64,000 nucleotides of DNA, taken from Promethearchaeota archaeon (lineage in GTDB: Archaea > Asgardarchaeota > Lokiarchaeia > Sigyniarchaeales > SOKP01). Shown in pieces: positions 14,843 through 64,000 of the stretch (positions are counted from its first letter, which is position 1; each line of letters opens with the position of its first letter). The notes beneath the pieces were generated by a model. The model was not told the origin of the DNA, made no database searches, and was given only the letters and a program-made list of their open reading frames with translations. The position numbers and the translations under genes are program-made. The DNA is taken from the NCBI GenBank assembly GCA_019058245.1, contig JAHPZJ010000025.1:28408-92407 (forward strand), in the 5' to 3' direction.

Positions 14843-14943
14843 GCCTCTGTGGCTTAGTGGTATAGCAACATTTCATATCATTTCGATAAAAAGGTTAAAG
14901 ATTCGTAATCTGTAGATCGGGGGTTCAATTCCCCCCAGAGGCT
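14843..14943 (+). tRNA. tRNA-Thr(CGT) with 29-nt intron in the anticodon stem (28/29 or 29/30; about 14870-14899)
   Basis: Acceptor GCCTCTG/CAGAGGC, anticodon arm ACAGA-TT CGT AA-TCTGT after removing the insert, and T arm GGGGG-TTCAATT-CCCCC. Confidence 0.92.
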
Positions 14944-42242: not shown

Positions 42243-42362
42243 AAAAAAAATCACACTTTTTTTATATTTTTTAAAAAAAACTGAGCTTAAACTTAAATTT
42301 ATTAAATTAAAATCCATTAAATTATTAGTAAAAATAAAAAATATGTAATATAAAGAATTAAA

Positions 42363-44792: not shown

Positions 44793-45402
44793 TTAAAATT
44801 CCAAAAATCCAGGATCATCAAAAATGTCGTCGATTTTACGTTCCTTTTTTATCTTGGTCTCACTTTCAGTAAACAAGGATTCCTCATCTGTACGAACTCC
44901 TCGTTCTAATTCTTCGGTATCTAATTTTAAAACTGTATCCTTTTCCAAACTCTTATATTTTTCGCTTTTTATTTTCCAGTCGTTAACCTCATCTAAATTA
45001 ACATCTTCTTCTTCTAATAGTACAGCAGCTTTAGTTTTACAAAGATCTGATAAAATTGAATAAGCTAATGCTAATTCACCCCATTCGTGATCATCTTTTA
45101 ATTTTTTTATTCTTTTCTCTAATCTTTGCAATTCTTGATCAGCATAATAAACATCAATAAAATCTCCGAATGCATCTACAGGTTCTGAAATAGAATTTAC
45201 TAATACTTCTTTTGTTAATCCACAATTTCCACATTTCACTGTAGCAAAAGCACCTTTCTTCTTTATATCAGTAACCTTAACACTTTTTTCACCGCATTCG
45301 AGGAAAGATCGGAATCCAATCTACTCATTCTGGGCAGGTGAAAATTTTAGGCACTCTCTTTACTCGTTTCGGTGATACTTGTTTACGCTTTCTTCTTCCC
45401 AT
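44793..45402 (-). CDS. elf1: Transcription elongation factor Elf1 with C-terminal extension; split by a 31-nt intron (exons 45402-45328 and 45296-44793)
   Basis: MGRRKRK...PKIFTCPE|CGEKSV...VKCGNCG...EPVDAFGDFID once 31 nt are removed; 192 aa spliced. Confidence 0.9.
45297..45327 (-). other. Putative BHB mRNA intron in elf1
   Basis: Central helix CCAG/CTCG, bulges AA|T and AA|T, inner helices GAG/TTC and AGATTGG/CCGATCT, outer exon helices GC/GC and TTCACC/GGTGAA. Confidence 0.8.
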
Positions 45403-45599
45403 TATTATCACTACTAATATCTAAAAAAATAGATCTTTATTCAATTAGAATAAAGATAAGGAAACCTAAAATATTTTTGCTTTTATGTTAGAAGTTTTTA
45501 GGGAATTAGTAAAATTTTTTAGGAATGTTTTATTATTTTATTTACTCTTTTTCACTGAAATGTTTTAGCAGTTTTAATTATAAGGAGTGGATTTTAGGC

Positions 45600-46700
45600 G
45601 TGGAACACAAAAATTTAACATTAGAACAAGATAAGAATTTAATCGATAACATTCTTGATAATGTAGATATGAAATATATCATTCTGTTTTTGTATGTCAT
45701 CAGAAATGATTTATTCAAAGATTTAACTAACGAAAGTATCAGAGAGTCATATGAGAGAGTGTTGGTATTAGATGAAATATATAAAAAAAACGTAATAAAT
45801 TTTTGGGATGAAGAATTTATCGAAAATTATATTGATTTAGGTTTAATTAAAAATATTAGAAGTATGAGAGAATTCCAACAAAAGGACGATGATTTTATTC
45901 TAAAGTTGGGAGAAGAAACTATAACCATTGAGAATGATACAATTTCTGTTCCCGATGATACACTCTATTTAATAATAAATAAGAAATTTAAATTCCTGAC
46001 AAGAAGGAATTTTAATTTAGCACTTACGAGATTAAAAGGTGTTCGATGTGAGAAGAGTAATATAATTCATCCATTAATTTATGGGATTGGTGAACATGAT
46101 TACACCTTATCTGATGATTTATACATCATATTAGATCAATATGGGAATATTTATCAAGCTATTAAAATTGAAGTTACAATTGAAGGATTTTATCAAAGAT
46201 TTAATGAAATTCAAGAAAAGATTAGCAAATATATAAAAATATTCGACCCTACATTAAATACAAAACCAGTAATGAAAAAAATAACAAAAGCATTAGAAGA
46301 AAATAAAGATATCATACAATACCTCAAGGATGAAAAAATAGAACTTTCAGATAAGTTTATTTTCGAGAAATTAAACAAAAACGATAGTATATTTCAAAAA
46401 TGGAATTCTCAACTATTATCATTACTAACAATTAGAAACAAAATAGAAAGATTAGATAAAAAATTAATAGAGTTAAAGAAATTCTATTCAGGTAAGAATA
46501 AAAAATATAGATATTTAGAATTTATTGAAAAAATTTCTTTTAATGAAGAAAACATCGTGGATACAATTCAAAATTTATTAATAGAATATCGAAAAGAATT
46601 AATTAAAATTAATGAAGATATTTCTGAAATAACGGAGAAGGAATTAAAATTATTAAATTTAGACTATGAAAGGTTAATAATAATGAGTAGTGAAGATTAA
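45600..46700 (+). CDS. Hypothetical protein, wHTH-like region + coiled coil (probable GTG start at 45600)
   Basis: GGAGTGG precedes the GTG; RRNFNLALTRL...DYTLSD helix-wing pattern; C-terminal heptads. Confidence 0.7.
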   Translation: MEHKNLTLEQDKNLIDNILDNVDMKYIILFLYVIRNDLFKDLTNESIRESYERVLVLDEIYKKNVINFWDEEFIENYIDLGLIKNIRSMREFQQKDDDFILKLGEETITIENDTISVPDDTLYLIINKKFKFLTRRNFNLALTRLKGVRCEKSNIIHPLIYGIGEHDYTLSDDLYIILDQYGNIYQAIKIEVTIEGFYQRFNEIQEKISKYIKIFDPTLNTKPVMKKITKALEENKDIIQYLKDEKIELSDKFIFEKLNKNDSIFQKWNSQLLSLLTIRNKIERLDKKLIELKKFYSGKNKKYRYLEFIEKISFNEENIVDTIQNLLIEYRKELIKINEDISEITEKELKLLNLDYERLIIMSSED

Positions 46701-46702
46701 AA

Positions 46703-47668
46703 ATGAAATGCCCTGCATGTAATATACAAATGCAACCATTAGTAGAGGGTATTTTTCAGTGTCCCCAATGCAAAAAAATAATTAAACAAAAAGATAAGGA
46801 ACTACAAACAAAGGAGAAAAAAGCAATTGAAGGCAGTGTTTTTCAAGATGGTGAATATTTTCATAAAAATGTAAGTTTGAATAAACAATATGAAATCTGT
46901 GAAAAAGGAATTACTATCAATAAGACCAGTAATAGACTATTCGCAGTACTAATTTGTCATAGTGCATATTTAAAGGATGAGAAATATGTGAGATTATCTT
47001 GGTGGAAAAATTACCAACATGCGGGAATGTTTAAAATTTATGATAAATATGTATTAAATAATCTTATCATTGCTTTAGAGAGAGTAGATGAATCTTTTGA
47101 TGATATTTGGAATTGGAAAGGTAAATTTGGGAAACAAGAACCCAAAACAGAAGAGGACTTGCAAAAGGAAAAGAATTTGGAGATTATAAAATATAGAATT
47201 CTTGAAAATAAAACATGTCCTAAATGTCAGAAAAAGATGGATAAAATGAAATCACATTATGAATGTCAACATTGTGGTGAAATCGTTATTTTAGAAGGTT
47301 ATAACCAACCGATATTCAATATTGCTCCGGGTGACCTTGATCTACGATTTCATGCTAATTTTCCAATAAATTATTATTTGCCAGTGAGTGGAATAACTCT
47401 TAAATGGTTGATGGGTGAATGGAAAGCATTAGCAGTAATTTTTTCGAAAGATAATCCAAATAAAAAATGGTTAAGATTCTATTGGTGGATAAGAGATTTA
47501 AGTAATATTTTAAAATTTGGACAGAGAGAAATGGGAAATGGTACTCAGATGGGGTGGAAAGCTCAAAAGGGTGTTTCATCTCCAAATCTTTATGAGAGAA
47601 ACTTAGTTAAACCTCTAATTAATGCTTTAAAGAATATATTAATTGAATTAGATTGGAAAATTAATTAA
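46703..47668 (+). CDS. Duplicated Zn ribbon + PC4/PUR-like domain protein
   Basis: Two CxxC...CxxC ribbons, each followed by related segments (GIT...YVRLSWW and GIT...WLRFYWW...WKAQKGVS). Confidence 0.7.
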   Translation: MKCPACNIQMQPLVEGIFQCPQCKKIIKQKDKELQTKEKKAIEGSVFQDGEYFHKNVSLNKQYEICEKGITINKTSNRLFAVLICHSAYLKDEKYVRLSWWKNYQHAGMFKIYDKYVLNNLIIALERVDESFDDIWNWKGKFGKQEPKTEEDLQKEKNLEIIKYRILENKTCPKCQKKMDKMKSHYECQHCGEIVILEGYNQPIFNIAPGDLDLRFHANFPINYYLPVSGITLKWLMGEWKALAVIFSKDNPNKKWLRFYWWIRDLSNILKFGQREMGNGTQMGWKAQKGVSSPNLYERNLVKPLINALKNILIELDWKIN

Positions 47669-47695
47669 AATTAATTTAGAAGCTAAGGGAAGAAA

Positions 47696-48835
47696 TTGTC
47701 AGAAATTCAAGATACTACATGGAAAGAGTTATTAAAAATCTTTCAAGATGGGCTTGAAAAAGCAATTGAAGAATTACAAAAAAGAGATGTAGAGAACATT
47801 CCAGGGGCAAAAGAAGCCTTGATTCAAAGATTAAATAATATGAAGCTTCATTTCCCAAAGAATAATGGAGAAATATTTTTAAAATCTATTAATGATAAAA
47901 TTCAAAATGCTTTTTTTCCTAATAGCACTAATTTCTCAGAAGCTTTTGAAAAAATATTAAAATCTAGAACACATGAGCAAGATTTTATAATTAATGAATT
48001 ATTAAATGGTTTTATAACTTCTAAAGCGAAAGCAATAGCATCAGGAAGTCAAGGACCGATAATAGATAGAATTGTTGAGGCCTTTAGTAAGAGAAATGAT
48101 TTTCATATCGTTGATCATCAATTTTTTGCCATGTTTGGCGATCCAAATAAACCACGTCACTATGTAAAAAAACAACTTGAAGAGCTTGTTAATATGTTTG
48201 GTCTTGTATCCAAAGAACTGGTAATTGAAAAAGATGTGAGAAGGAGTGAAGAAAAAATTTATACTTTTTACACATTTCCAGATGAAATCATAAAAATTCT
48301 TGAAGAGAAGTATTTAATAATTGATGAAAAACTAGGATATGCCTATGTTTCTGAAAATTTTGATAGAAATGTTTTTATATGTATGTTTTTGGCAAATATT
48401 GCTATAAATAGAGATAATATTGAAAAAATTGGTGGTTCTTATACAATTAATGGAATATCCGCAATTTTTGCATTAATCTTATTACTAAGTTTCATGCCAA
48501 AATTAAGAGCAGATGAAACTAATCCTGTTTTAAACGATCCAAATTTCGATGAAAAAAATATGAGTATAATTCCGAAATCTTGGATGATGAAACAGGTTTT
48601 AGAACCTCTATTTGAACCACTCATCAAAATCATTGCATATCGAATAGGAGGAGGATTATGGCTCTCAAAAATAATAGATTCAGAAATTAATAAGAAGATT
48701 CATACTCAAATAAGATTTCTTCTCAAGGATGTGAATAAATGGATTCTAGGGAATTTATGTCGAGTTGAGATTCCCATATTTATTGAAATATCTAATATAT
48801 TTACTGAAATTCTAGTAGGTTATGATGAACAATAA
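47696..48835 (+). CDS. Hypothetical protein with central wHTH-like segment
   Basis: RHYVKKQLEELVNMFGLV...YTF pattern; tightly spaced in the cluster. Confidence 0.7.
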   Translation: MSEIQDTTWKELLKIFQDGLEKAIEELQKRDVENIPGAKEALIQRLNNMKLHFPKNNGEIFLKSINDKIQNAFFPNSTNFSEAFEKILKSRTHEQDFIINELLNGFITSKAKAIASGSQGPIIDRIVEAFSKRNDFHIVDHQFFAMFGDPNKPRHYVKKQLEELVNMFGLVSKELVIEKDVRRSEEKIYTFYTFPDEIIKILEEKYLIIDEKLGYAYVSENFDRNVFICMFLANIAINRDNIEKIGGSYTINGISAIFALILLLSFMPKLRADETNPVLNDPNFDEKNMSIIPKSWMMKQVLEPLFEPLIKIIAYRIGGGLWLSKIIDSEINKKIHTQIRFLLKDVNKWILGNLCRVEIPIFIEISNIFTEILVGYDEQ

Positions 48836-48860
48836 AAAAAAATAAATTATTAACAAAAAA

Positions 48861-50168
48861 ATGAGCTATAAAAAAAAATCTACGAGGACTGTAAAATCAG
48901 GAAGAAAAAGAGAGAAATGGACAGATATTTTACCAAGATATCTGACCTTTATCAGTCACATGCGTCCTATCCTTAGAGAAACAAGAAGAATTATTATAAA
49001 TTTAGATGCAGATTTATTATTAGATACAGAAGTTTTAGATAAAATTCGTCAAGAAGAAGAAAAAAGAAATATACGTAAGGTTAGGGCTCTTTCAGAATTT
49101 TCCGCTATGTATAGATCAAATGTTTATGACATTATTAAAGACTTTATAATTAAATATAGAGAGAATATTCCTATAATAGATATTAAAGATTACATTTTAG
49201 ATTTTCTTCATGAATCTGTTGATGCTTTAAATGTATTGCGTCATATTACGAATCCAGATGAGCTTAATTTAGAGAATACCTACTTATACCAACTTGTAAA
49301 ATTTATTGAAAGTAAATTATTTCCAAGAGGAGCAAATCTTAAAATTATTTATAATAAATTAATACAGGAATCTATCGATTTTTATGAATGTCAACGACAT
49401 ATATTACAACCTCATACATTTTATCGGGAAAAATTAGAAAATCCCGATTATTTTGAAATTCCAGGGATATCTCCGAAAATATATCAAATAATTAATAATA
49501 TAACATCTCTTTATAATTTAGATCCTAATTTTGGAGAATTTCCCGAAAGAGAAAACTGTGAACTTCCAATAATTTTAAAGAATGATATATTTCTTCCTTA
49601 TGTAGATTCTATAGCAAATCCAGAAGAAGAGTCTATAGAAAAAATTGCTGAACGTATTGGATTACGCCTGCTTGATGAAATTTTTTTAGCTCCAGAGGAA
49701 GATTTTGTTGAATTGCTCTTAGAAAACAATTTTTTACGTGAAAACAAACAATCAGATGGAATTTTGAGATATTATCCACAATTTAGCAATGAAACTATGA
49801 TATTATATTATTTAGCTTTTGCTTCTCAAAGACGAGGTTTTCTCTCAAAAGAATTAGTTAATTGGATTTCAATGAATTTTGCATTCTTGATTTATATGAG
49901 TATTTTAAAATGGAAATTATCTGATGAAAACATCTTCTATGCTATTTTTAAAGATTTGCAGACAAATGAAAAAGTACTGCCTTATTTAATGAAACTTATA
50001 TGTTTTCCGAATTATTTGGGACTAGACAAGATGAAGATTCGAGATTCCGTCCAATATCGGAAAGAAATTTTTAATTTTATTGGATCTCAAATTGATAATT
50101 TAAAAGATTTAATTAATGAAACAGCTAATTATTGTAAAAATATTGATGAAAATAATAAAAAAAATTAA
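48861..50168 (+). CDS. Hypothetical helical protein with basic N-terminal tail
   Basis: 435-aa ORF starting MSYKKKSTRTVKSGRKR; tightly spaced in the cluster. Confidence 0.75.
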   Translation: MSYKKKSTRTVKSGRKREKWTDILPRYLTFISHMRPILRETRRIIINLDADLLLDTEVLDKIRQEEEKRNIRKVRALSEFSAMYRSNVYDIIKDFIIKYRENIPIIDIKDYILDFLHESVDALNVLRHITNPDELNLENTYLYQLVKFIESKLFPRGANLKIIYNKLIQESIDFYECQRHILQPHTFYREKLENPDYFEIPGISPKIYQIINNITSLYNLDPNFGEFPERENCELPIILKNDIFLPYVDSIANPEEESIEKIAERIGLRLLDEIFLAPEEDFVELLLENNFLRENKQSDGILRYYPQFSNETMILYYLAFASQRRGFLSKELVNWISMNFAFLIYMSILKWKLSDENIFYAIFKDLQTNEKVLPYLMKLICFPNYLGLDKMKIRDSVQYRKEIFNFIGSQIDNLKDLINETANYCKNIDENNKKN

Positions 50169-50189
50169 TCGAAAAAAAATTAGAGTATA

Positions 50190-51299
50190 ATGAGTAAACA
50201 AAAAACTGAAAAAGAAGAAAAAATTGTATTTTCCGATGATGTTATAAAAGAACGACTCGGAAAATATGGTGCGGTCTATTTTCCTTCAGATATTAAAGAA
50301 ACAGTAGATGATATTTTAGGAAATGAAACCAAAAAAGAAATCTTAAGTGATTTTTTTAAAGCGTTAAAAAAATATAATGAATTTACTGAAAGATTAAAAT
50401 ATACTAAGTTAGCTCCAAATCTAACTGTGCTTCTATATGGTCCTCCCGGAACAGGAAAAACTTCTTTAACAAGAGGTTTTGCTAAAGAACATAATATTCC
50501 TATGTGTGTAGTAGAATCTGATAGGCTTGTATCACCTTTACTTGGAGACACTATTAAAAACATCCGTGGAGTTATTGAACTTGCAGCTGAAATCGCTAAA
50601 GAACGAGGGGCCTTTGTATTATTTTTTGATGAAATTGACGCAATTGGCTCTGAGAGATCAAATATTCACGAAGTAGGAGAAATCAAACGCGCAGTAATTT
50701 CTTTTCTACAAGTTATAGATAAAACTAATTATGAAGGAGTCCCTCTTGCAATTTTTGGAGCGACTAATCATCAACATCAATTAGATTCGGCAATTTGGCG
50801 TCGTTTTACATTTCATTTTAAGTTTGATTTCCCAGAATTCCAACTAAGAAAAAAAATTATTGAATCATTTATGAATAAACTGAAAAAAGCAAAAATTGGA
50901 ATTGATGATTCAATTTATTCTAATTTAAACAATGAATATGAAGAAGTTCTAGTAATTTCTAAAGAATTAGAAGCTAAATTAGGATATAAAGTATCTGAAT
51001 TTGATAATAACATCTTATGGACAGAGTTTCGTAAAAAAAATAAAGTAGAAGGTCTTTTGGCATTAACATATGGATATTCTGGGTCGGATATTGAAAGAGG
51101 AACAAGAGTAGCAATATTAAAAGCTATTAATACAGAACTTTTGACATATGAACTTTTTTATAATTCCTTAAAGTTAGTTGGTGGCACAGCTATTCATGTT
51201 GATAGACAAGATATTTTAAGTGATTCACTCCCAAAAAAAAATCGTATAAGTAGACCTCTTAGGGATAAAAAGAGCATATCTGGTCCTCCTGAAATTTAA
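50190..51299 (+). CDS. Single-domain classic-clade AAA+ ATPase
   Basis: [21 protein letters not shown]...LDSAIWRRF and GYSGSDI. Confidence 0.93.
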   Translation: MSKQKTEKEEKIVFSDDVIKERLGKYGAVYFPSDIKETVDDILGNETKKEILSDFFKALKKYNEFTERLKYTKLAPNLTVLLYGPPGTGKTSLTRGFAKEHNIPMCVVESDRLVSPLLGDTIKNIRGVIELAAEIAKERGAFVLFFDEIDAIGSERSNIHEVGEIKRAVISFLQVIDKTNYEGVPLAIFGATNHQHQLDSAIWRRFTFHFKFDFPEFQLRKKIIESFMNKLKKAKIGIDDSIYSNLNNEYEEVLVISKELEAKLGYKVSEFDNNILWTEFRKKNKVEGLLALTYGYSGSDIERGTRVAILKAINTELLTYELFYNSLKLVGGTAIHVDRQDILSDSLPKKNRISRPLRDKKSISGPPEI

Positions 51300-51344
51300 A
51301 GATAACAAATAAAGAACGATTAGAATAGAATTAAATTAATAATT

Positions 51345-52388
51345 ATGATGAATAAAAACCAAATATTTGATCTGGATAAGATTAAAGAAGTAACAATCCC
51401 AATTGAGGAACTTCAGATAAAAGTTAATCAAATAATCAATTCTTCTAAAAATGTAACAGATAATATTCATATCATTGAAGACGAATTTGAGGATGAGAAA
51501 TTATTTTCTCAAATAGAAACAGTACAAGAACTATTAAAAAGTGTTAATGATAAATTGAATTCAGTTTCAAAATCAAATTTAAATAAATTCTTGGATTTTC
51601 AAGAACGCTTGATTAAAAAATATAAAGAAAATTTTAAAAACAAATTAAAAATACTTACTTTAACAGAAGAAAATATAAAACTTATTGGATTATCTTTTAT
51701 TGAAGAAAAAAGAATTAGTAAAATTCTCGATAATGTTTCTTTTATTCCTTCAATTGAAATTTCACAATGGTTACAGCTTTTAGATTCATTGAAGTATAAT
51801 ACTATTTTTCTTAAATCAGTAAAACAAATAGAACATTATTTTCAAGAACTATTACAAGAAAGACTTGACATAGAAATAAGTAAAATTCCTAATCATACAG
51901 ATCCAATTCTAATTAGTGATTATAAAGAATATTTTAAAAACAATCTTAATTCAACATTCAAAGACTTTTTACAAATTATTGAAAGTAAACTTTCACAAAA
52001 AGAGTTAGAATCGAAAGAAGAAATAAGAAAACAAATAGAAGAGAGAGAAGAATTAGAAAAACTAAAAAAAAAACAAAAAGAACAAAAAAAATCTTATGAG
52101 GCTTATTTAAATCTTTCAGAAAGTGAATTCGAGAGAATAAGAAGGAAAAAAAGTAGAGAAAAATTAACCGATGTTTCTAAAGGAAAAAATCTGGAAAAAG
52201 AAATCGAATTAAGTGAAGAAGTTTCTGAAAAAATTAAAAAATTTAAATCTCAATTTAAAAAAAATTTTGATGAAAAATATATGATTCAAAAAGATGATGA
52301 CATAGATCCTATTGATATAATAAGAAAAAGAAAGAAGAGAAAAGAAAAGGAATATAAGGAATATAAAGACCATTTTGAAAATCTTTAA
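51345..52388 (+). CDS. Coiled-coil-rich hypothetical protein
   Basis: 347 aa with K/E-rich helices. Confidence 0.75.
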   Translation: MMNKNQIFDLDKIKEVTIPIEELQIKVNQIINSSKNVTDNIHIIEDEFEDEKLFSQIETVQELLKSVNDKLNSVSKSNLNKFLDFQERLIKKYKENFKNKLKILTLTEENIKLIGLSFIEEKRISKILDNVSFIPSIEISQWLQLLDSLKYNTIFLKSVKQIEHYFQELLQERLDIEISKIPNHTDPILISDYKEYFKNNLNSTFKDFLQIIESKLSQKELESKEEIRKQIEEREELEKLKKKQKEQKKSYEAYLNLSESEFERIRRKKSREKLTDVSKGKNLEKEIELSEEVSEKIKKFKSQFKKNFDEKYMIQKDDDIDPIDIIRKRKKRKEKEYKEYKDHFENL

Positions 52389-52411
52389 TTAAAATAAAAA
52401 AGGTTTTTTAA

Positions 52412-54025
52412 ATTCTTAAAAACATTTTAAATATTTCCATTGGTTCAACCGAAATTCCAATTCAAGATAGGTTCACATTGATTCATGGAAAAATCAAGAA
52501 GAATTTATTGAATAAATTTAAAAGTGAAACATTTATTGAAATTTCTGAAAATATGAATATAATCTCTATTGAAAAACTCATTGGTCTTTTAAATGAAGAA
52601 GCTCAAGGATATGATAAATTAAAAGATGCGTTAAGACTTATAGAATATATTCATGAATATAATAATGTTTTATCTAAAAATATAACTCTTTCTTCTCAAC
52701 TCAATGAAATTATAAATAATTTAAATTTAATTCTTAGATTTTACACTCTTTCAAAAAGAAAAAATCTATTATTAAAAGAATTAAAATTATCAGAATTTTA
52801 TAATGAATCAAGGAATAAAACAGCTCTTTCAGATTTATTGAAAAAATTAATTGATTCCTTAAAAAATAATAAAGCCAAATTAAAATTTCTGGAGGAAGAT
52901 TACCTCCAACGGAAAAACCAAGTTGATCAGGTTAAAAATAAAGTTGAAGAATTGAATATAAAAATTCAAAAATTAACTAACAAAAAAAAGCAATGTTTCA
53001 ATCAAATTAACAGAATTACACGGTCAATGTCAGAAAATACTCCAGAAATAAAAGAAGAATCTAAATTTACTGGTAAAAACACTAAAAATAATCTAACAAA
53101 TGCCCAAAAAATAAAAAATTTTCAATTAAAAGCAAAAGATATTCAATATAAGATTAACGAAAGTAAATCAAAGAAAACTGAAAATGAACTTAAACTCAAA
53201 GATTTAAATCCCATCTTTGAAAGTTATAAAAGTGATTATGAAAATACTTTAGAAATTATCAATAACGAAGAAAATAGAATAAATGAAATTCAAATTGAAT
53301 TAAAAAAAGAAATTAGTGATAGTAAAGATACGTTCATTGAGGATCTTGAACTAGTAGATTTAAAATCATTAAAACCCTCACAAGTTATTAAGGATGAAAT
53401 AGAAAAAATAGATAGAGAATTGGCTCAAATTTTTATTCCAAAAAAGGACTCTAATTCTCAGAATGCTTCTGCTATATCAAATATCATTCAAAATCTAAAA
53501 GAATTGGAAGAATACATTAATAAACATAAATCAGAACTTACTATAACAGTAAACGAAAACGAAACAATCAAATGCATTGACCAATTTACTAATTTGGAAA
53601 ACATTATTAGCGAAATAGAATTTTTGATAAATAAATTCTTATCAGAAGTTAATTTAATTGCTCAATTTAGATTGGCTTTAAATGACAATAATAATAAATT
53701 TTTTATTAATACAAAATTCATTAGGAGAGATAATAAACAGGTGAATTTCGATGGATTGACCACTCCAGAAAAGGTCTTTTTCATTATTGTATTCTATATA
53801 TCAATTAAACTTCATACCAAAAGTAAAAATATTATTATTTCAAATGTTTCAATATTAACCAAATATAATAAAGCGGGGTCTATATATAGAACAATTAGAA
53901 AAATTTTACCACTTTTTGAAAAGGATGATATTCTTTTAGGATTTAATTTAGTCTTTATTTTATCAAACTTAGAATTAAAAAAAGAAATAAAAAATTTAAA
54001 AATAAAAACAATACAAGAGATTTGA
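52412..54025 (+). CDS. SMC/Rad50-like coiled-coil protein with degenerate ATPase head (probable ATT start at 52412; ORF track starts at 52478)
   Basis: N-terminal ILKNI.NI...IPIQDRFTLIHGK, long coiled coil, and C-terminal FDGLTTPEKVFFIIVFYISI....NIIISN where LSGGE...hhhhDE normally lies. Confidence 0.65.
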   Translation: MLKNILNISIGSTEIPIQDRFTLIHGKIKKNLLNKFKSETFIEISENMNIISIEKLIGLLNEEAQGYDKLKDALRLIEYIHEYNNVLSKNITLSSQLNEIINNLNLILRFYTLSKRKNLLLKELKLSEFYNESRNKTALSDLLKKLIDSLKNNKAKLKFLEEDYLQRKNQVDQVKNKVEELNIKIQKLTNKKKQCFNQINRITRSMSENTPEIKEESKFTGKNTKNNLTNAQKIKNFQLKAKDIQYKINESKSKKTENELKLKDLNPIFESYKSDYENTLEIINNEENRINEIQIELKKEISDSKDTFIEDLELVDLKSLKPSQVIKDEIEKIDRELAQIFIPKKDSNSQNASAISNIIQNLKELEEYINKHKSELTITVNENETIKCIDQFTNLENIISEIEFLINKFLSEVNLIAQFRLALNDNNNKFFINTKFIRRDNKQVNFDGLTTPEKVFFIIVFYISIKLHTKSKNIIISNVSILTKYNKAGSIYRTIRKILPLFEKDDILLGFNLVFILSNLELKKEIKNLKIKTIQEI

Positions 54026-54534
54026 TTTTATTGTCAATAGAAATGAACAATATAAATGAAATTGTTAAAAACATTACAAAAATTATTTTAACAAATCCAC
54101 AAAAGGTCATTAGAGAAGAAGATCTTAGAAATTTGAGTAGAGATCTTGATTTTGAACAAATTATGAGTGATGTTTATCTAAATTTGAAAAACGTAGGTTT
54201 TGAACTTATTAAAACAAAATTCCTCGAACAGCAATATTACATTCTAACATCAGAAGGAAAAGATGATAATATCACACCTTCACAATATGGTGTTTTGGCC
54301 TTAATAATAGCATTAAGTAAGGAAGTTGATGAAAATATTAAGATCAAGGATTTAAAAGAAATTTTTGATGAACTATGGGCATCTGATGTTCAATTTTTAA
54401 TTAATAACGATTACTTAAGGACTTTTGAAGATTTGGGAATAATTAAAGTAACTCCATTAGGTAAAGCAATAATGAAAAATGTCATTAAAGATTTAAAATT
54501 GCAAAATTTACTTAATTTATTTGGAAACAAATGA
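54022..54534 (+). CDS. Tandem winged-helix protein (KITE-like: ScpB/MukE/Nse1-3 type)
   Basis: LKNVGFELIK...YYIL, then GVLALII...LINNDYL...IKVTPLG; overlaps the stop of the SMC-like gene. Confidence 0.6.
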   Translation: MILLSIEMNNINEIVKNITKIILTNPQKVIREEDLRNLSRDLDFEQIMSDVYLNLKNVGFELIKTKFLEQQYYILTSEGKDDNITPSQYGVLALIIALSKEVDENIKIKDLKEIFDELWASDVQFLINNDYLRTFEDLGIIKVTPLGKAIMKNVIKDLKLQNLLNLFGNK

Positions 54535-54565
54535 AATCTTAATGTTTAAAAAAAATAAAAAAAAT

Positions 54566-54994
54566 TTATTCTTCAATTGGATTTTCTAAATCCATTTTAA
54601 ATTGGTCAACAATTTTTTTTACGCGATCTGCTGAAGGGCCTGTCCCTCTTACTTCATTTTCATCAACAATTATTTTTCCATTCAATATTGAGATAATATT
54701 TTGATCTTCAATATAATTTACATGACCTTTAGAAAATATGGTTGCGATTCTATCTGCTAAAGCTTTCATCGGAAAAGGTTCTTCTTCTAAACTCACAAAG
54801 TTGTAGAATGAGCTTCTGATAAAGAGTTTTGGAAATGATTTATTTTTCTCATTTTTCGCATTTATTAAAATCAAATTCGAATCTTCAGAAACTCCTTTTA
54901 ATTGACCAACAAAGAATTTGTCCTTATCTAGATACACTTTAACAATTTTATCAATTAATAATCCTAACTCCATATTAAATTGTCTTAATGACAT
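54566..54994 (-). CDS. Sm-like (Lsm) protein with C-terminal extension (SmAP3-like)
   Basis: LIDKIVKVYL...GQLKGV...NLILINA...LFIRSS, followed by LADRI...G.GP.ADRV. Confidence 0.85.
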   Translation of the reverse strand: MSLRQFNMELGLLIDKIVKVYLDKDKFFVGQLKGVSEDSNLILINAKNEKNKSFPKLFIRSSFYNFVSLEEEPFPMKALADRIATIFSKGHVNYIEDQNIISILNGKIIVDENEVRGTGPSADRVKKIVDQFKMDLENPIEE

Positions 54995-55151
54995 GATCCA
55001 TCAGATAATTCATTTGTACATAATTTAATTTATTTTTGCTTTTATACTTAATATAGGAAGTATTTTTTATAAAAACTATATCTTTTCTATTCATTTGATA
55101 TTATTATTGGAAAGATTAGTTATTTTGAACACTGTGTCTTATTAAATAGTA

Positions 55152-56381
55152 GTGATTTGTAATAATATTAACGTGAAACTTACTGAAGTTATCCAAATAA
55201 ACTATTCAGTAGAGTTATCAAGATTATGTCATTTAGCAAAGAATCTTTACAATTTAGCTAATTGGTATGTTAGACAACACTTCTTTAATCTCGATACTCT
55301 CTTATCATATTATGATTTAGATTTCATTCTAAAAAATAAACATGAATATCTAATTTTACCTTCTCAAACATCACAACAAATTCTCAAATACGTGACTAGA
55401 GATTGGAAGTCTTATTTCAGAGGATTAGAAGAATATAAAACAAATTTTAAGAAATTCAAAAAAAAACCCAAAATCCCACAATATAAGAAGAAAAATGGAG
55501 AGTTTGTAGTAATTTTTACCAATCAGCAATGTAAAATTAAGAATGGATATTTATATTTTCCAAGAAGGGTCAATCTTGAACCAATTAAAACAAGAATCAC
55601 CGAAAGATTAAAAGAAGTGAGAATGATCCCTTTAGGCGTAAAATATAAAATTGAACTTGTATATGAAAAAGAACTGAAGGATTTAAAATTAGAAAAAGGT
55701 CATGTGTTAAGTATTGATTTAGGATTAAATAATCTCATAACTGCAGTAAATAATAATGGATGTCAACCTTTTATTATTAAGGGGGGGATGATAAAATCCA
55801 TAAATCAATATTATAACAAGCAAGTGGCATACTATAGAAGTATCGAAAATAAAAAAGGTAATTTCACCGATACAAAAAGGATTCAAAAACTCCATTTAAC
55901 TCGAAATAATAAACTTATTACATTTTTTCATCGAATCTCTAAGAATGTAATTGAATATTGTACTTTACATAACATTGGAACAATTGTCATAGGATACAAT
56001 TACGGATGGAAACAAAAGATCAACATAGGAAAAAGAAATAATCAGAAATTTGTACAAATCCCTTTCTTGAAATTAGTACAACAAATCGAATATAAAGCGA
56101 AATTGAAAGGAATAAATGTCCTAAGAGTTAATGAATATCACACATCTAAATGTTCTTTCTTAGATAATGAACCAATTGGAAAACATACGACCTATGCAGG
56201 AGAAAGAATTTCCAGAGGGCTGTTCAAAACCTCCAAAGGTATTGCACTCAATGCTGATGTGAATGGAGCATATAATATCATGAAAAAAGCATTCCCAAAT
56301 GCCATTTCGGTGGATGGGATAGAGGCATTCGGACTAATGCCGCAAATACTACAACAAAATATCGTTGATATTAGTATTTGA
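55152..56381 (+). mobile_element. tnpB: IS200/IS605-family TnpB with no adjacent TnpA
   Basis: AKNLYN, LPSQTSQQ, SIDLGLNN, IGYNYGWKQ, NEYHTSKCS, RGLF and NADVNGAYNI. Confidence 0.93.
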
Positions 56382-56420
56382 AATAAAATAAGTATAATTT
56401 TACCTGTTTTAATGGTCTAA

Positions 56421-57077
56421 CTAATCTAAAATACAATATATAAGTTTAGAGATATTTTCTCCGGATGTAGCACTTGTTTTAATAATCTTAAGGTTAGGAT
56501 TAATTCTTTTAGCATCATTAACCATTTTCTCAAGATTTATATCCATTACATCCATCAAATCAATTTTATTAATCACAGCTATATCTGACATTTTAAAGAG
56601 CATCGGATGTTTTTCAATTACCCATTCCCCCTCAGTAATTGATACGATTACTATTCGTTTCTCGGTACCCAAAATAAAATCAGAAGGACATATCATATTT
56701 CCCACATTTTCTATGAAAAGAATATCAACCTCATCTAAAACATAATTTTTTAATACTTGGGATATATGATATGAATTTAAGGCACATTCTCGACCAGTGT
56801 TTATCTGAATTGTCTTAACTCCATGCTGTTCAATCCTATCAGCATCTATCCGAGTAGCAACATCACCATTAATAACTAAAATTCTGTAGTCCTTAGTAAT
56901 TCTTTCTACAATCTTCTCAATAATTGCTGTTTTACCTGCACCTATTGCTCCTACAAAATCAAATGCTCTTATCTTTTTTTGTTTCAATATCTGATCATTC
57001 TGCTCGGCCAATTTATCATTATTTCCTATTAAATCTTCATTTAACTCAATAACTCGAGAAATTTTTTTATCGGACAT
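56421..57077 (-). CDS. hypB: Hydrogenase nickel incorporation GTPase HypB
   Basis: GAIGAGKT, INTGRECAL, ENVGNMICP, ITEGE..KHP and NKID. Confidence 0.92.
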   Translation of the reverse strand: MSDKKISRVIELNEDLIGNNDKLAEQNDQILKQKKIRAFDFVGAIGAGKTAIIEKIVERITKDYRILVINGDVATRIDADRIEQHGVKTIQINTGRECALNSYHISQVLKNYVLDEVDILFIENVGNMICPSDFILGTEKRIVIVSITEGEWVIEKHPMLFKMSDIAVINKIDLMDVMDINLEKMVNDAKRINPNLKIIKTSATSGENISKLIYCILD

Positions 57078-57178
57078 CTTATTTTTTCAATTACTCTTTT
57101 AAATTTGATAGAATATAAAAATAAAGATTTACACCTTGATAATTTTTGTGAATTTGAATGAAATTTATGTTTCAGGTT

Positions 57179-58120
57179 CTATCTTTTGGAAAATTGATAC
57201 TTAAATACAATATAAGCTCCTAAGATCCCTCCCAAATCAGGTAAATAAATAATAATAGAAGAAAGATCATACCAAACAAATAATAAAACGGGGAGTACTC
57301 GAAGTAGTATGATAATTAATAGAAAAGCTTTTCCATTCATTCTAACTGGAAGAAAATACATAAGCCCCGTAATTTTTTTATTCATAATTGGAAATATTGA
57401 ATAGGATATCAATCCTAAAATGCCTCCCCAAGCTAAACCAGTATAGATGGGAAGGTCATTTAATGGATATATTGATATTAGAGAGAGTCTCAATAAAACA
57501 TAGAATAAAGCAGTAAATAAACAGCAAGTTACATACAATTTTATTAAAAAGTTTGTTCCAAAACTCATTTCAATATTTCGAGTCATAAAATATAAAAAAA
57601 ATAACATGATAAATAAGAAAAATAAACTAATTAAGTCCCCAGAACAAATAAAAAGGCTAGTAAAAATAGTATGATATGTAAATTCATATATTAATCCATG
57701 TAAACTTAAATAGAAAAATTCTGGAATATTGTTATAGATAAAAATTAAAGCTGTTATGGAGAATATTATAATTAAAACAAATAAAATCTTAGAACCTTGA
57801 TATTGGGAAGGTCTTTTATAAGATGTCTGATAACTCCTTAACGTTCTTTCTCTTTGTTTATCTTGTCTCCTTAAATATTTCTTTAAGGTTTTTGGACCTT
57901 TATCTAAATAAAGTTTTGATTCTTGTTTTTTTGCAATTGCTTTCTGGTATCCCTGTTGAGACTCTCTTGGGCTTATAGGAACAACAGGCACATGTTTTAA
58001 TTCAAATGTACACTCATGATTTTCTGGTAATCGATGTCTTTTGCAATAGGTTCCTCCACAATATTTACATGTAAATGGCAAATAACTGATCGGATCTCCA
58101 CAAAATTCACAATATGTCAG
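57179..58120 (-). CDS. AN1-type Zn finger + rhomboid-like (probably inactive) membrane domain; probable CTG start at 58120
   Basis: CEFCG...LPFTCKYCGGTYCKRHRLPENHEC; rhomboid-like TM pattern with GLAWGG and PDLGG. Confidence 0.8.
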   Translation of the reverse strand: MTYCEFCGDPISYLPFTCKYCGGTYCKRHRLPENHECTFELKHVPVVPISPRESQQGYQKAIAKKQESKLYLDKGPKTLKKYLRRQDKQRERTLRSYQTSYKRPSQYQGSKILFVLIIIFSITALIFIYNNIPEFFYLSLHGLIYEFTYHTIFTSLFICSGDLISLFFLFIMLFFLYFMTRNIEMSFGTNFLIKLYVTCCLFTALFYVLLRLSLISIYPLNDLPIYTGLAWGGILGLISYSIFPIMNKKITGLMYFLPVRMNGKAFLLIIILLRVLPVLLFVWYDLSSIIIYLPDLGGILGAYIVFKYQFSKR

Positions 58121-58319
58121 TCTAATTCACCAAGAAAACAAAAAATTATTTCAATACCTTAATCAAAGAATTGAAACCAATAATAATGAATAATTATGAT
58201 CCTTGATAATTTTTACTTTTTATTTAATTAATTCCTTTTTAATCTAACAAAAAAATTTTAAAATTAAGCATTTAAAATAGAAAACTCTCCTAAAATTTAA
58301 GATTTATTAAAGATTATTA

Positions 58320-59309
58320 TCAAATATATGGATTTATAGCAGGTGGAGCATAGATCAGAGCGTATGTCGTTATTAAAAGGATTAACAATGAGCCACATAG
58401 TCCAAGATATACTTTTTTATTCCATCTCCAAATGTTTTGTCCATCTAAAATCCCTATAGGAATCATATTAAAGGTGCCAAGCATGAAATTTAAGTTTGCT
58501 GCTAAACATATCAATTGATTAAGGGGATAATCTGGAATTATAAAAGAAATTACAAGAAGTATACTACCATATACGAGGTTAATTGTTGGTCCTGCCGCTT
58601 TACATAATCCCGTGGTTCTGTTAATTGTACTTAAACCTAAGACAACAACTGCACCAGGTAATGCTAAGGAAGGAAAGCTATTTCCACCAGAGATCAATGA
58701 ATAAATATTCATCACAACACCAATTACCGTTAACATCATTCCATAGGTCAATAATCTAAATTTTGTTTGAAGATTAAAATGTTTTGCTACTTGTCTATGT
58801 CCTAACTCATGAAAAAGAAAAGCTGTGGCATAAAAACCAGCTAACATAAAAATTGTCCATTCATATCCTTTAAGAGTTATTAAATTTGGAATGAAAGTTA
58901 TAATACCAATAAGAAATATTAGTGATACGCCGATTATAAAATGAAATAATTCTGATTTATGAGGCAATAAAATACCTTTAAAATTAATTCCAGAATCAGG
59001 ATCAAATGCATCTACAGGAATTTGACTCTCTTGGCGATACCAAGTATATGTTCCATCTGTAGTTCCTCGAACAACCCCTGAAGTAGTTGATTGTTGATAT
59101 GATTGCTCTTGAGAGATAGGAACTGTTTCTGTTGGTTGATTATAAGAAGAAGTCATAGTTGGAGTTTGTTGGAAACTAGTAGATCCTCTTACAATACTAC
59201 AATCATGATTTTCTGGTTCTTTATGCCGTAAACAATAACTATACCCGCATTCATTACAATAAAAGGGTTCTCCAATTATTTCATCTCCACAATGAGCGCA
59301 ATTTACCAT
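58320..59309 (-). CDS. AN1-type Zn finger + M50 site-2 protease
   Basis: CAHCG...CNECGYSYCLRHKEPENHDC; HELGH, AAGP and FNMIPIGILDG. Confidence 0.9.
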   Translation of the reverse strand: MVNCAHCGDEIIGEPFYCNECGYSYCLRHKEPENHDCSIVRGSTSFQQTPTMTSSYNQPTETVPISQEQSYQQSTTSGVVRGTTDGTYTWYRQESQIPVDAFDPDSGINFKGILLPHKSELFHFIIGVSLIFLIGIITFIPNLITLKGYEWTIFMLAGFYATAFLFHELGHRQVAKHFNLQTKFRLLTYGMMLTVIGVVMNIYSLISGGNSFPSLALPGAVVVLGLSTINRTTGLCKAAGPTINLVYGSILLVISFIIPDYPLNQLICLAANLNFMLGTFNMIPIGILDGQNIWRWNKKVYLGLCGSLLILLITTYALIYAPPAINPYI

Positions 59310-59520
59310 GATTATTACCTAGTCTTAAAATTTCAATAGTTTATTTTTAAATAAATTATAATATTGAAGATTTAAAATTTTATTGAGAATATTATTATTG
59401 AATAGTATTCTTAAGTTCTTTATTTTTCTTTTCTCATACTTATTAATGTTAAATTAAGAAAAATATATTAAGCTGAAGTTTACTTTTTAATTAGAGTTAA
59501 AGATTTTGTAGGTCTATGAT

Positions 59521-59682
59521 ATGAGTGAAGATGAAAATAATGATGAAATGTCATTGGATGAGGAACGCAAGAAATTAAAAGACATAGGGGTCAATAGTAC
59601 ATGGGGTTTATTATCATCTGGAGAAAAAAAAAATAAAAAGCCCGAAGATGAAAGTAAACCAGCTTTTAGAGGATTTAAATAA
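59521..59682 (+). CDS. Unannotated 53-aa charged peptide
   Basis: MSEDENNDEMSLDEERKKLKDIGVNSTWGLLSSGEKKNKKPEDESKPAFRGFK*; AGGT upstream. Confidence 0.6.
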   Translation: MSEDENNDEMSLDEERKKLKDIGVNSTWGLLSSGEKKNKKPEDESKPAFRGFK

Positions 59683-59846
59683 TAATTTTAATAATTTCTT
59701 ATTATTCCTAAGTGAAATTGCTATATTTCATTTAATCGGCTAATATTATATCTAAATCAATATCAAATTGATTAATCAACCAAAAAATAAATAAAGCTCC
59801 AAATACTAATTTTAAATATTATCTATAGTTTTTAGGATAATATAAT

Positions 59847-60113
59847 ATGACTCATAAGGTATATTGCCCTACCTGTGAAGAAATCGTCACTCTACGCAGA
59901 AAGAATTTTGACCATGTTTATCATGAAGTTTTATGTTTTATGGTAATCTTAACTTTAGGTTTGGGCTTTATTATTTACTTTATCTTAAAATATTCTAAAA
60001 AACCAAATACATGTCCTAATTGTGAATCTCAATTCGATTTAAAAAATTTATCAACAGATATGATTAATATCAATAAACGTTTTGGTTCTGGTACTACATT
60101 TACTTTACCTTAG
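59847..60113 (+). CDS. LITAF-like Zn-ribbon membrane protein
   Basis: CPTC, a hydrophobic stretch of about 25 aa, then CPNC. Confidence 0.7.
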   Translation: MTHKVYCPTCEEIVTLRRKNFDHVYHEVLCFMVILTLGLGFIIYFILKYSKKPNTCPNCESQFDLKNLSTDMININKRFGSGTTFTLP

Positions 60114-60366
60114 GCTTCATCTTTTTATTACATCTTGGACAAATGAGATCATTATCAGAAAGTTCTTTTTTCATTATTGTTTTTTGATATTTGCATTTTG
60201 AATTTGGACAAATAAGAATATATTTGTTCAACTTGGTTATAGGTTTTTCATCAGATATCTTTTGCATATCTTCAATTTGATTTTTTGATTTTTGATCGGG
60301 AGCTTTAACCTTTTTCTTTTGCTTTTTCTCCTTATCTTCTGGTTTGATCCATTTGTCTAATCCCAT
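60100..60366 (-). CDS. Small Zn-ribbon protein
   Basis: MGLDKW...CPNSKC...CPRC. Confidence 0.75.
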   Translation of the reverse strand: MGLDKWIKPEDKEKKQKKKVKAPDQKSKNQIEDMQKISDEKPITKLNKYILICPNSKCKYQKTIMKKELSDNDLICPRCNKKMKPKVK

Positions 60367-60503
60367 TCATTCTCACAAAATATATTTATCGGTTTATTAT
60401 TATGAAGATTTAAGATGTTCAATTATTTATTCGTTATTTATAAATATAACCTAATAATTAAAAAAGAGAAAAAAATAAAAATTTGTTTATCCACAATGAT
60501 TAT

Positions 60504-61748
60504 TTAAAAGACTTGAACATTTCCTGAAATAAGTCTCTTTCTTAAATCAATGAAATTTTCTTTATTCAGTTTTTCAGCTGAAACTTCTTCCGCTATTTTC
60601 TTTATTGAATCAAAATTAACGTTGTCTGCAGGGATTAATTCAATTGAATTAACCCAAGGGTCTGTTATTGGGCGTCCTATTTGAGATAATAATTTAACAT
60701 GAGCTTCTATTATATCTCCTTGACCTCTTTTAATAATATCTCTTGCTATTTCTGTACTTAAAACATTATATAATTTCCCTACATGATTTATTGGATTTTT
60801 TCCGCAAACCGCTTCTAAACTCATTGTTCTGCAGGGTGTGATAAGACCATTAGCTCTATTTCCACGACCCACTTCTCCATCATCACCCGCTTCGGCAGAT
60901 GTCCCAGTAATAGTCATGTACATTATTCCTTTTTCTATATTATCACCAACATTTACTTGACACGATACATCTCGTTCTGGGATAATATCTGCCGCTAAAT
61001 CTAAGACTGCTTCTTTTATTTGAGTTGTATAGCTAATATATTCACTAACGTCATTAATATATTTACTTACCATTGCTGCAGCAATTGTAATACCTACTTC
61101 ATTTCCAACCCTCTCTACCATTACCTTTATGTCTTCCCCTGAAGCCTTACATTTATCCTTGAATTTATCTGAATTAATTAACATCTCTGCTTCTAAAGCT
61201 ATTTTTTCTACATCAGAATATGGAGCATATCCTACTCCGAAACTCGTATCATTTGCAAGTGGGACTTCTTCAGTATGATGTGATTGATCAAAAACTCCTG
61301 TTAAATCTATTGATCCTGGTCGAACAGCATAATCAAACTGGATATCTTTATTCAAATCAAGGTTTCTAAAAATATCGGAGAGAACCTTTCGTTGTGTTTC
61401 TATACAAATGGTTGGAATAGGAATATATTCAAGTTTACTTGTACCATCGCCACATTCTGTAAGGATCTGATTTATAGCTCGTCCAACAATGAGAAAATAT
61501 TGTGGTTGGATAATCTGACCTCCACCAAATTCCGGTCTTGCAGTACCTCCAACTAATGCTGCCTTATCTACGTTATGGTGATAAACTCTACCAAAATTCT
61601 CAAGATAATACACACATAATGCCCTAGAACAAGCATCAGCGACAGCATCACAAACAGTGTCAGGATGTCCAATTCCTTTCCTTTCAACTAACTCTGGGAA
61701 TTCACTTTTTTCAATTGGTAAAAAGTTAGCACGAGTAATTTTCAACAT
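60504..61748 (-). CDS. mat: Archaeal S-adenosylmethionine synthetase
   Basis: [35 protein letters not shown] and GKNP.NHVGK. Confidence 0.97.
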
Positions 61749-61936
61749 TTCACTTAACCAACTTGTTAATCATTTACATAGTTCTTTTAAATATATTTTT
61801 AAATTTATTATCAGTTAAATTCCTTATTAATTGAAAAATGCAATCAATACATTTTTTAGTTGATGATAATATATAACTTTTTAAATTTTTTATTCTTCTA
61901 ATATGCATAAGATTCATATAATTCTTCTATTAGATA

Positions 61937-62506
61937 ATGCAAATATTACCATCATTAAATGATATTAGGCGTTTACGCAAAAAATTAAATATCAGTCAAA
62001 AAGCTTTAGGAGAAAAATTAGAGCTCTCACAATCCATAATCTCAAGAATAGAAAGTGGTGAAGTAGATCCTCCTTATTCCAAATTAAAAAAGATTTATGA
62101 ATATTTAGAGAATGAACGTAAGATAAGAGAAAAATCAAAAAAACATGCCTCTAATATTATGAGTTCAGATCTCCAATCTATAAAGCTTAGCACAACTTTA
62201 AGAGAAGCAGTTGATTTAATGAACAAGTATGAAATTTCTCAACTACCAATAATAGAAAATAATATAAATTTAGGAAGTATCACCTCTAAAAAAGTACAGA
62301 AATCCATAACGGATAATCCTGAGATTATTAAAATGGATGTGTCTCTTATAAAAGAATTACCCTTTCCTGAAATTAATAGAAATTGGAATGCAAAAGATAT
62401 ATCAAATCTCCTTTTGCAGTATCCTGCTGTGCTGGTAAGAGAAAATAATAATTATATTGGAATAATTACTGATTCCGATCTTCTAAAAATAAATAATAAG
62501 AAATAA
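61937..62506 (+). CDS. HTH + CBS-pair transcriptional regulator
   Basis: ISQKALGEKLELSQSIISRIESG; ISQLPI and GIITDSD. Confidence 0.9.
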   Translation: MQILPSLNDIRRLRKKLNISQKALGEKLELSQSIISRIESGEVDPPYSKLKKIYEYLENERKIREKSKKHASNIMSSDLQSIKLSTTLREAVDLMNKYEISQLPIIENNINLGSITSKKVQKSITDNPEIIKMDVSLIKELPFPEINRNWNAKDISNLLLQYPAVLVRENNNYIGIITDSDLLKINNKK

Positions 62507-62563
62507 CAAAAAAAAAAAAGAATAATTTTTTTATATAATATTGTGTTTTAAAGAGTAGATTTA

Positions 62564-63562
62564 ATGATTGAAGAGATAATTGAAAAGCTAAACGTTTTAT
62601 TACAAAAGGCTAATTACGAAACATTGGCTCTGGGTAATTTTGCGGCAAAAAAGAATAAATTTTGCTTTGATCTATTAGTTAAAAAGAATGATTTAGTATT
62701 TAGTGTAAAAGTTATTCCTAATATTGATAATTTAAATCCAAATATCGTACGAGATATTAAATCGTTATCTACAATTCTTAAATCAAAGCCTTTATTAATT
62801 GGAATTAGGAATAGATACCAAAAATTAGAAGACAACACAATTTATTTAAGAGAAGATTTACCGTTTATAACACTTAATACATTTGAAAATATTCTTAATA
62901 GCAATTATCCCCATATTTTAGCTAGACGAGGTGGTGGAGTAGTATTTTTAGATGGATTATTAATGAAAGCTTTAAGAGAAGATCATTTATTATCAAGAAA
63001 GGAATTATCTGATAAATTAGGTGTAACCAAAAGGACTTTATGTGCTTATGAAAATGAATCTATGCGACCTTCAGAGAAAATTGCTAAAAAAATACTTGAA
63101 CTATTGGAAAATGATAAACTTTTTAGAAAAATCAATATATTCGAATGGCCAATTAAAGTTGAAATAAAAAATTTCGAACTTTTCGAAGGAGAGGAACTGA
63201 CTGAGTTTGAAACTCATGTTCAAGAGATTATTAAAGATATCGGAGTTTCTTCTTATTGGTATAAAAAAGGTTCAATTCCCTTCAAATTATCTTTATATTC
63301 TATTTCTGATAAGAAAGAATCCGAAGGATTTTATCCTCTCTTTTCTGGTATAACTGAAGAACAAGGAAAAATTAATGAAATGAGCTTTAAATGCCTAAAA
63401 ATGTTTACAAAATTATTCCACAAAAAATCATTATTTATTATAAATAATGGAATAAAAATACCTGAAAAATTCCGTAAAGAAAAAATACCTATTGTTAAAA
63501 TTGGAAATTTAGAAAAAGTAGATGATGAAGAAGAATTCATTGAACTCATCCAAGATTCATGA
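62564..63562 (+). CDS. Conserved archaeal HTH regulator (nuclease-like N-domain + Cro HTH)
   Basis: CFDLLVKK, NIDN, ARRGG and LSRKELSDKLGVTKRTLCAYE. Confidence 0.88.
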   Translation: MIEEIIEKLNVLLQKANYETLALGNFAAKKNKFCFDLLVKKNDLVFSVKVIPNIDNLNPNIVRDIKSLSTILKSKPLLIGIRNRYQKLEDNTIYLREDLPFITLNTFENILNSNYPHILARRGGGVVFLDGLLMKALREDHLLSRKELSDKLGVTKRTLCAYENESMRPSEKIAKKILELLENDKLFRKINIFEWPIKVEIKNFELFEGEELTEFETHVQEIIKDIGVSSYWYKKGSIPFKLSLYSISDKKESEGFYPLFSGITEEQGKINEMSFKCLKMFTKLFHKKSLFIINNGIKIPEKFRKEKIPIVKIGNLEKVDDEEEFIELIQDS

Positions 63563-63569
63563 GGATAAT

Positions 63570-64000
63570 TTGGAATTAATTTGTGGGATAGACGAGGCTG
63601 GTAGAATTTAATTCGCTTCGAATTTTATATTAAAAGGCTCTGTCTTAGGTCCTATGGTTATATGTGGTATTTGTTTTATTAAATCAAATTTAGATTTCCT
63701 TTCAGAAATAGGAGTTAAAGATTCAAAAAAGTTATCTCCTCAAAAGAGAAAAAGTTTAGCGGAAATTTTGAAAAGAAACTGTTATTCATATAATATTATT
63801 GAGATAAGCGCTCTTGAAATTGATGCGAGGGAAATTAAAAAAATTTCATTGAATCGACTAGAAGAATTAAAAATGGCAGAAATTATAAACAAATTAAAAC
63901 CTGATACGATATATATTGATGCTGCTGATGTTAATGAAGAGAGATTTGGAGTTTCTATTAAAAATCTATTAAATTATAAACCTAAAAACATCATCTCTAA
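63570..64000 (+). CDS. rnhB: Ribonuclease HII split by a 30-nt intron; 3' end truncated by window edge
   Basis: TTG after GAGGA; MELICGIDEAGR|GSVLGPMVI...GVKDSKKLS...IYIDAAD once 30 nt are removed. Confidence 0.93.
63605..63634 (+). other. Putative BHB mRNA intron in rnhB
   Basis: Central helix TGGT/ATTA, bulges AG|A and AA|A, inner hairpin AATTCG/CGAATT, outer exon helix AGACGAG/CTC-T-GTCT; contains an in-frame TAA. Confidence 0.85.

Follow-up and report, generated by a model that had tools for sequence, protein, structure and literature searches.

Bulge-helix-bulge inserts in elf1, rnhB and further protein-coding genes of a Lokiarchaeia genome and their probable tRNA-type splicing

Among archaeal coding genes, cbf5 is the only one with confirmed splicing at a motif of the bulge-helix-bulge (BHB) type in the searchable literature, and papers by Watanabe (2002) and Yoshinari (2006) reportedly deal with its intron in the precursor messenger RNA (pre-mRNA). 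The cbf5 intron of the Desulfurococcales and Sulfolobales is a small BHB intron within coding sequence that falls in a codon of the catalytic motif, is cut after the second bulge base by a hetero-oligomeric EndA and shows both gains and losses in related lineages; for other archaeal genes, introns had been predicted but not confirmed (Yokobori 2009, PMC2738675). The 5' untranslated region of Haloferax HVO_1309 carries a BHB intron of 46 nucleotides (nt) that also makes an mRNA a substrate of EndA but breaks no reading frame, and in 2020 cbf5 was named as the only other mRNA example (PMC7714728). Asgard archaea have non-canonical transfer RNA (tRNA) introns with a BHB motif and repeated gains that annotation overlooks, but the papers describing them cover tRNA genes only, with 0 occurrences of 'mRNA' in the preprint (PMC11291895; bioRxiv 10.64898/2026.10.13.758758). 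Our literature search, outside which most subscription papers lay, returned no paper describing introns within the coding sequences of Asgard archaea. Here we describe inserts in elf1 and rnhB within a stretch of 64,000 nucleotides (the window) of contig JAHPZJ010000025.1, assembly GCA_019058245.1, from a Promethearchaeota archaeon of the Lokiarchaeia. We hold with high confidence that both represent cbf5-type BHB introns in mRNAs which would be cut by EndA, joined by RtcB and archease, spliced constitutively, and gained and lost in a patchy manner. Splicing has been demonstrated for cbf5, whereas we infer it here.

The elf1 gene lies on the reverse strand. Exon 1 (45328..45402, ATG at 45402) comprises 25 codons ending in the first zinc-knuckle Cys-Pro-Glu and is separated by a 31-nt insert (45297..45327) from exon 2 (44793..45296), which comprises 167 codons and the stop. 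The insert introduces a frameshift and a TGA, and the unspliced reading frame terminates one codon past the first Cys-Pro-Glu. Exon 2 alone is called as a truncated open reading frame of 148 amino acids (aa), and a public assembly lists the 148-aa protein, which has no more than a faint Pfam match. Excision of 45327..45297, the only register with BHB geometry, gives a protein of 192 aa, which is the length of the intronless homologs, and 17/17 residues around the junction are identical to an intronless relative. The fold comprises a central helix CCAG/CTCG with 3/4 pairs, a bulge AA^T on either side, inner and outer stems of 10 bp and the apical loop GATTC, with a folding z of -3.5 against shuffles. 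Five public Elf1 calls (P0012, P0075, P0090, P0112 and P0117) start at an ATG inside the 3' end of the intron and are missing the first zinc ligand; these are annotation artefacts of intron-bearing alleles. In genus g9, the Elf1 domain appears to be tandem-duplicated in one frame of about 260 aa (G008, G019, G027, G034 and G040).

The second gene, rnhB (RNase HII), is on the forward strand, 18.3 kb from the elf1 site, and its insert is unrelated in sequence. Exon 1 (63522..63604) ends with the first two bases of an Arg codon, that of the DEAGRG motif, which is interrupted by a 30-nt insert (63605..63634) with an in-frame TAA; exon 2 (63635..64000) continues past the contig end. The central helix TGGT/ATTA forms 4/4 pairs, the bulges are AG^A and AA^A and the apical loop is GCTTC. 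Folding is less extreme at z = -2.5, with 6/200 shuffles equally good. The start codon is uncertain among the in-frame candidates ATG 63522/63525 and TTG 63540 or 63570, while ATG 63559 was rejected as out of frame. With the likely start (ATG 63522/63525), rnhB shares 40 nt with the end of an upstream gene for a helix-turn-helix regulator, an overlap repeated in relatives. For both genes, excision in the BHB register recovers exactly the protein of the homologs. Fold and excision confirm what an earlier note on this DNA had proposed, namely two translation-blocking BHB inserts of 30-31 nt situated in key motifs.

Both inserts recur at the same site across one Lokiarchaeia family. For elf1, 15/49 loci carry an insert of 30-32 nt, all of them translation-blocking, and one independent assembly has the insert of this genome with a single loop-side change. 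The nearest named rnhB loci come from Promethearchaeia/Lokiarchaeia, for example the genomes Loki_b32, Hel_238_bin13 and ABR05. The rnhB insert occurs at the same nucleotide in 69/107 distinct loci. It measures 30 nt in 65 loci, 29 nt in two, 28 nt in one and 31 nt in one, and it blocks translation by a stop in 65 and by a frameshift in 4. As the genome is metagenome-assembled, the stops and frameshifts could point to pseudogenes, transposon footprints or assembly errors, but we regard this as extremely improbable, as dozens of independent assemblies have inserts of diverged sequence at the same sites and the downstream rnhB frames are intact at 218-226 aa. Furthermore, purifying selection on rnhB is equal with and without the insert, the ratio of nonsynonymous to synonymous rates (dN/dS) being 0.163 in intron-bearing and 0.147 in intronless loci. 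Outside the family, elf1 was uninterrupted in all matches listed and rnhB in all 150 matches listed, from a table with 97 further rows. A 16-nt stop-containing insert was seen at the same AG^A site in the rnhB of a Thermoproteota metagenome-assembled genome, INS_M20_B145 (L237:~550-600); its central helix AGGT/GCCT forms 4/4 pairs and its removal gives a full RNase HII. This is a candidate mRNA intron outside the Asgard archaea at the position used in Lokiarchaeia.

An uncut RNA could in principle be read by a ribosome that hops over the hairpin, in the style of T4 gene 60. The elf1 insert of this genome does have features of such a bypass, being bordered on either end by a GAA codon, the first of which is immediately followed by a stop, and having a direct repeat GAATG and a hairpin. 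However, take-off and landing codons are mismatched in 9/15 elf1 loci, the rnhB junction falls within a codon, and the conserved exon-exon helix and 3-nt bulges would not be expected for hopping. Three rnhB loci are instructive here: their genomic codon is AGT, which on bypass would yield Ser and not the conserved Arg, and Arg is restored only by the BHB register. These loci fix the cut after the second bulge base; elsewhere this register is compatible within a short ambiguity. We therefore give bypass or readthrough very little weight. A group I or group II self-splicing intron was also rejected, since 28-34 nt is too short for a ribozyme core of hundreds of bases and no Rfam intron match was found in the window.

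The BHB helices of rnhB are maintained across the family, with 4/4 central pairs in 49/69 loci and 3/4 in 20/69. Across 63 aligned junctions, the structure was 89.5% paired against 82.2% after shuffling and no more than 43.5% after sliding, and two-sided changes numbered 62 against 15, although these covariation figures are inflated by kinship of the loci. Other points likewise weigh against reading the inserts as spliced introns. In this genome a C-C mismatch interrupts the central helix of elf1, which reaches no more than 3/4 pairs in 13/15 loci (it is 4/4 in two relatives). Although elf1 and rnhB each gave a single match, the genome is 76% complete and an intact paralog of either is conceivable. 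Metagenome contigs, in a collection that is probably DNA, held 0 copies of a clade-specific spliced rnhB junction, and for the junction of a small gene they gave 3 matches, all unspliced.

Synonymous sites flanking the rnhB junction are constrained. The wobble base of the Gly codon preceding the rnhB junction pairs with the intron in 62/63 junctions (UG, GC, UA or CG), and codon choice differs between alleles: the Glu codon is GAG in 68/69 intron-bearing and 20/33 intronless loci, and the Gly codon is GGA in 0/69 and 14/33, respectively. Divergence of the flanks relative to the gene rate is 0.21 (elf1) and 0.44 (rnhB) between intron-bearing pairs as compared with 1.35 and 1.11 between intronless pairs.

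Gain and loss were patchy. On a quick tree of rnhB, 12 state changes are needed and at least 7 are forced by strong branches. The closest intron-plus/minus elf1 pairs differ mostly at the junction, where 30 nt hold 4 or 5 changes as compared with 2 over the remaining 270, and another close pair has 9 junction changes against 12 elsewhere; these are three pairs with two intron-bearing loci, and the pattern was noticed post hoc. Loss through complementary DNA (cDNA) would leave the flanks identical, and therefore exchange of the intron together with a short flanking tract by recombination appears to fit better. Of four intronless Elf1 contigs checked, none has the flanks of an intron-bearing allele that would be expected of a cDNA, and the three close intronless Elf1 contigs spanning the divergent promoter are genomic. 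In the close allele pairs L063 and L290/L292, L064 and L289, and L024 and L220, the synonymous changes cluster around the junction, no further than about 18 nt from it.

The two genes are not alone. The genome (3.09 Mb, 29% GC, about 2,700 genes) was scanned for BHB geometry with inserts of 27-34 nt, with the mirror geometry as control. Without filters there were 12 million sites per geometry, true and mirror alike. Translation-blocking, gene-restoring candidates with a score of at least 17.5 numbered 7 in the true and 1 in the mirror geometry; with a score of at least 15 and a homolog across the junction they numbered 4 and 1, the sole mirror candidate being an antisense reading of elf1. As the coding-score filters initially missed the elf1 and rnhB introns, these de novo counts are lower bounds. 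The elf1 intron has the highest BHB score genome-wide, followed by tRNA T-arm introns and more mRNA inserts, in a ranking that is somewhat flattered because the score was devised after the elf1 and rnhB introns were known. Four candidates (C17:49991, C13:-187766, C8:27519 and C17:113177) were dropped as intact genes or intergenic.

In total we count at least 12 BHB inserts in at least 11 genes, a lower bound because our own scan alone found half of them. The ten besides elf1 and rnhB are 29-34 nt long with the same geometry. The scan gave a 30-nt insert with TAG in a conserved 87-aa protein (C13:239819), present in five genomes and absent from about 25 relatives; a 31-nt insert in a receiver domain (C23:13253), which failed the homolog filter and whose excision presumably restores the motif; a 30-nt insert at the G3 motif of a Rab-like GTPase (C4:1366); and a 31-nt insert after Walker B of an ABC ATPase (C3:41590). 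Six more, at C28:107060, C28:106949, C10:121094, C22:46679, C29:64620 and C1:5013, were verified by fold and restored motif only: two in cdhA (32 and 34 nt), one each in ahcY (32 nt), cobO (30 nt) and a small CxxC gene (29 nt), and one in uppS that is in frame without a stop (30 nt). The 87-aa protein (C13:237378-240087) is 74-96% conserved in the family, where two or more copies are common, and lies near an actin-like gene. The inserts sit in conserved motifs of genes of mixed function, and the hits in GTPase, ABC ATPase, CdhA, AhcY, CobO, UppS and the receiver domain show that they are not confined to the information-processing genes and 5' ends noted for elf1 and rnhB. The idea that such introns are widespread and hidden held in that they are multiple and produce truncated calls such as the 148-aa elf1, but not in extent, as well under 1% of genes were detected to carry one. 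The cbf5 case is different: a single gene is affected in Crenarchaeota, whereas a single Asgard genome has at least 11 unrelated host genes, of which one carries two introns. The cbf5, dnaG and EF-2 motifs of this genome read through without interruption. Lengths here, moreover, cluster at 28-34 nt.

Enzymes suited to such splicing are encoded. The window holds rtcB, the RNA ligase presumed to join the exons (26930..28402, reverse strand; motifs DINCG, GNHFLE and EAP-AYK, below the NCBIfam cut-offs), and archease, its cofactor (26425..26862, forward strand; PRK00407 over cut-off). They lie where the earlier note placed them, but their neighbourhood, 17 kb from elf1, counts for nothing as evidence. 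Two EndA paralogs are present in the genome, in the regions of C28:126271 and C20:60077. The alpha paralog aligns best with Aeropyrum EndA alpha (E 4e-35) and has retained a K-P-R loop along with Tyr, His and Lys of the catalytic site, and the second is without the catalytic His. Judging from these residues, the enzyme is probably of the (alpha-beta)2 type with a broad-specificity loop. In Aeropyrum, Lys44 of this loop confers broad specificity (PMC3241643), and cbf5 splicing has been linked to this EndA class (PMC2738675).

We propose that the pre-mRNA would fold locally into an outer exon-exon helix, a central helix of 4 bp, two bulges of 3 nt and an intron hairpin of about 9 bp, that EndA (alpha-beta)2 would cut each bulge after its second base, and that RtcB and archease would join the exons and restore the frame within the conserved motif. 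The introns behave like tolerated passengers which survive only where the BHB can be maintained by conserved codons, with patchy gain and loss in one Lokiarchaeia family. By this route tRNA-type splicing, with EndA and RtcB, very probably acts on mRNAs here.

In the HAC1/XBP1 system, a protein endonuclease and a tRNA ligase (RtcB in animals) excise a short frame-breaking intron. A comparable switch, in which conditional splicing governs a gene set through EndA/RtcB activity, had been suggested for this lineage, and several observations are in keeping with it: the unspliced message is non-productive for 11/12 introns, the rnhB intron is retained over most of the family, and the cbf5 intron has been suggested to act as a negative regulator (PMC2738675). 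We nevertheless consider such a switch unlikely and the suggestion not borne out. No KEN/Ire1 RNase domain exceeded the cut-off in the 76%-complete genome (best E 0.08), the targets are functionally unrelated, EndA is constantly required for tRNAs, and the introns are absent from many close relatives. As an example, the GTPase intron is present in 2/23 scored genus loci (one other genus member) and absent from a 98%-identical ortholog, and the repeated state changes of rnhB, at least 7-12, argue in the same direction. HAC1/XBP1 splicing moreover depends on stress-activated Ire1 and its stem-loop motif in one transcription-factor mRNA. Ire1 substrates carry two stem-loops, whereas the inserts here have BHB geometry.

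The mRNA inserts resemble the tRNA introns of the same genome, which are 29-33 nt long with the same fold. Rfam places two tRNA genes with non-canonical insertions in the window, tRNA-Lys(UUU) (13520..13623, reverse strand; 31 nt) and a probable tRNA-Thr(CGU) (14843..14943, forward strand; 29 nt, apical loop ATTTC). The earlier claim that these match the mRNA inserts stands as regards size, but the central helix of both is more relaxed than canonical. The apical loop ends in UC in 9/12 mRNA introns of this genome against 6% of background hairpins, most of the ten inserts outside the window have a pentaloop ending in U(C/A), several tRNA introns also fit a loop U(C/A) (background 17%), and loop position 4 is U in 61/62 rnhB and 14/15 elf1 introns; this NNNU(C/A) pattern was noticed after the fact. 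Whole-sequence similarity among 21 introns did not exceed that of shuffles. It is a tentative idea, and rather less likely true than false, that the inserts of about 30 nt form one mobile micro-intron family of tRNAs and mRNAs whose NNNU(C/A) pentaloop may be read by a cofactor and which would move between Lokiarchaeia lineages by recombination carrying 15-30 nt of flanking exon.

Elsewhere in the window, homolog alignments cover the called length of about 50 other genes. The same applies to the genes beside rtcB, in a test that is blind to introns shared with the reference. Spliced alignment, which the earlier note had named as a check, recovered elf1 and rnhB over 385 kb of homolog-covered sequence and nothing further. 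A proline/glycine-rich repeat protein (42363-42830, region 41619-42830) has GC-rich repeats that give false BHB matches. Eight co-directional genes at 45525-54534, including an AAA ATPase and an SMC-like protein, keep their order across the family.

Archaeal coding sequences are assumed to be intron-free save cbf5, and genomes with a dozen mRNAs or more that are spliced by an endonuclease would change that; in relatives of eukaryotes, they would provide a prokaryotic precedent for RtcB-dependent mRNA splicing. Genes such as elf1, rnhB, cdhA, ahcY, cobO and the Rab-like GTPase are mis-called as truncated or split, which biases the metabolic and eukaryotic-signature inventories of Lokiarchaeia. 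How BHB introns arrive has been stated to be unresolved (bioRxiv 10.64898/2026.10.13.758758), and coding genes offer close intron-plus/minus allele pairs with synonymous sites in which their arrival becomes testable. If the mobile family were real, mRNA splicing would be a routine, spreading and spliceosome-independent feature of an Asgard lineage.

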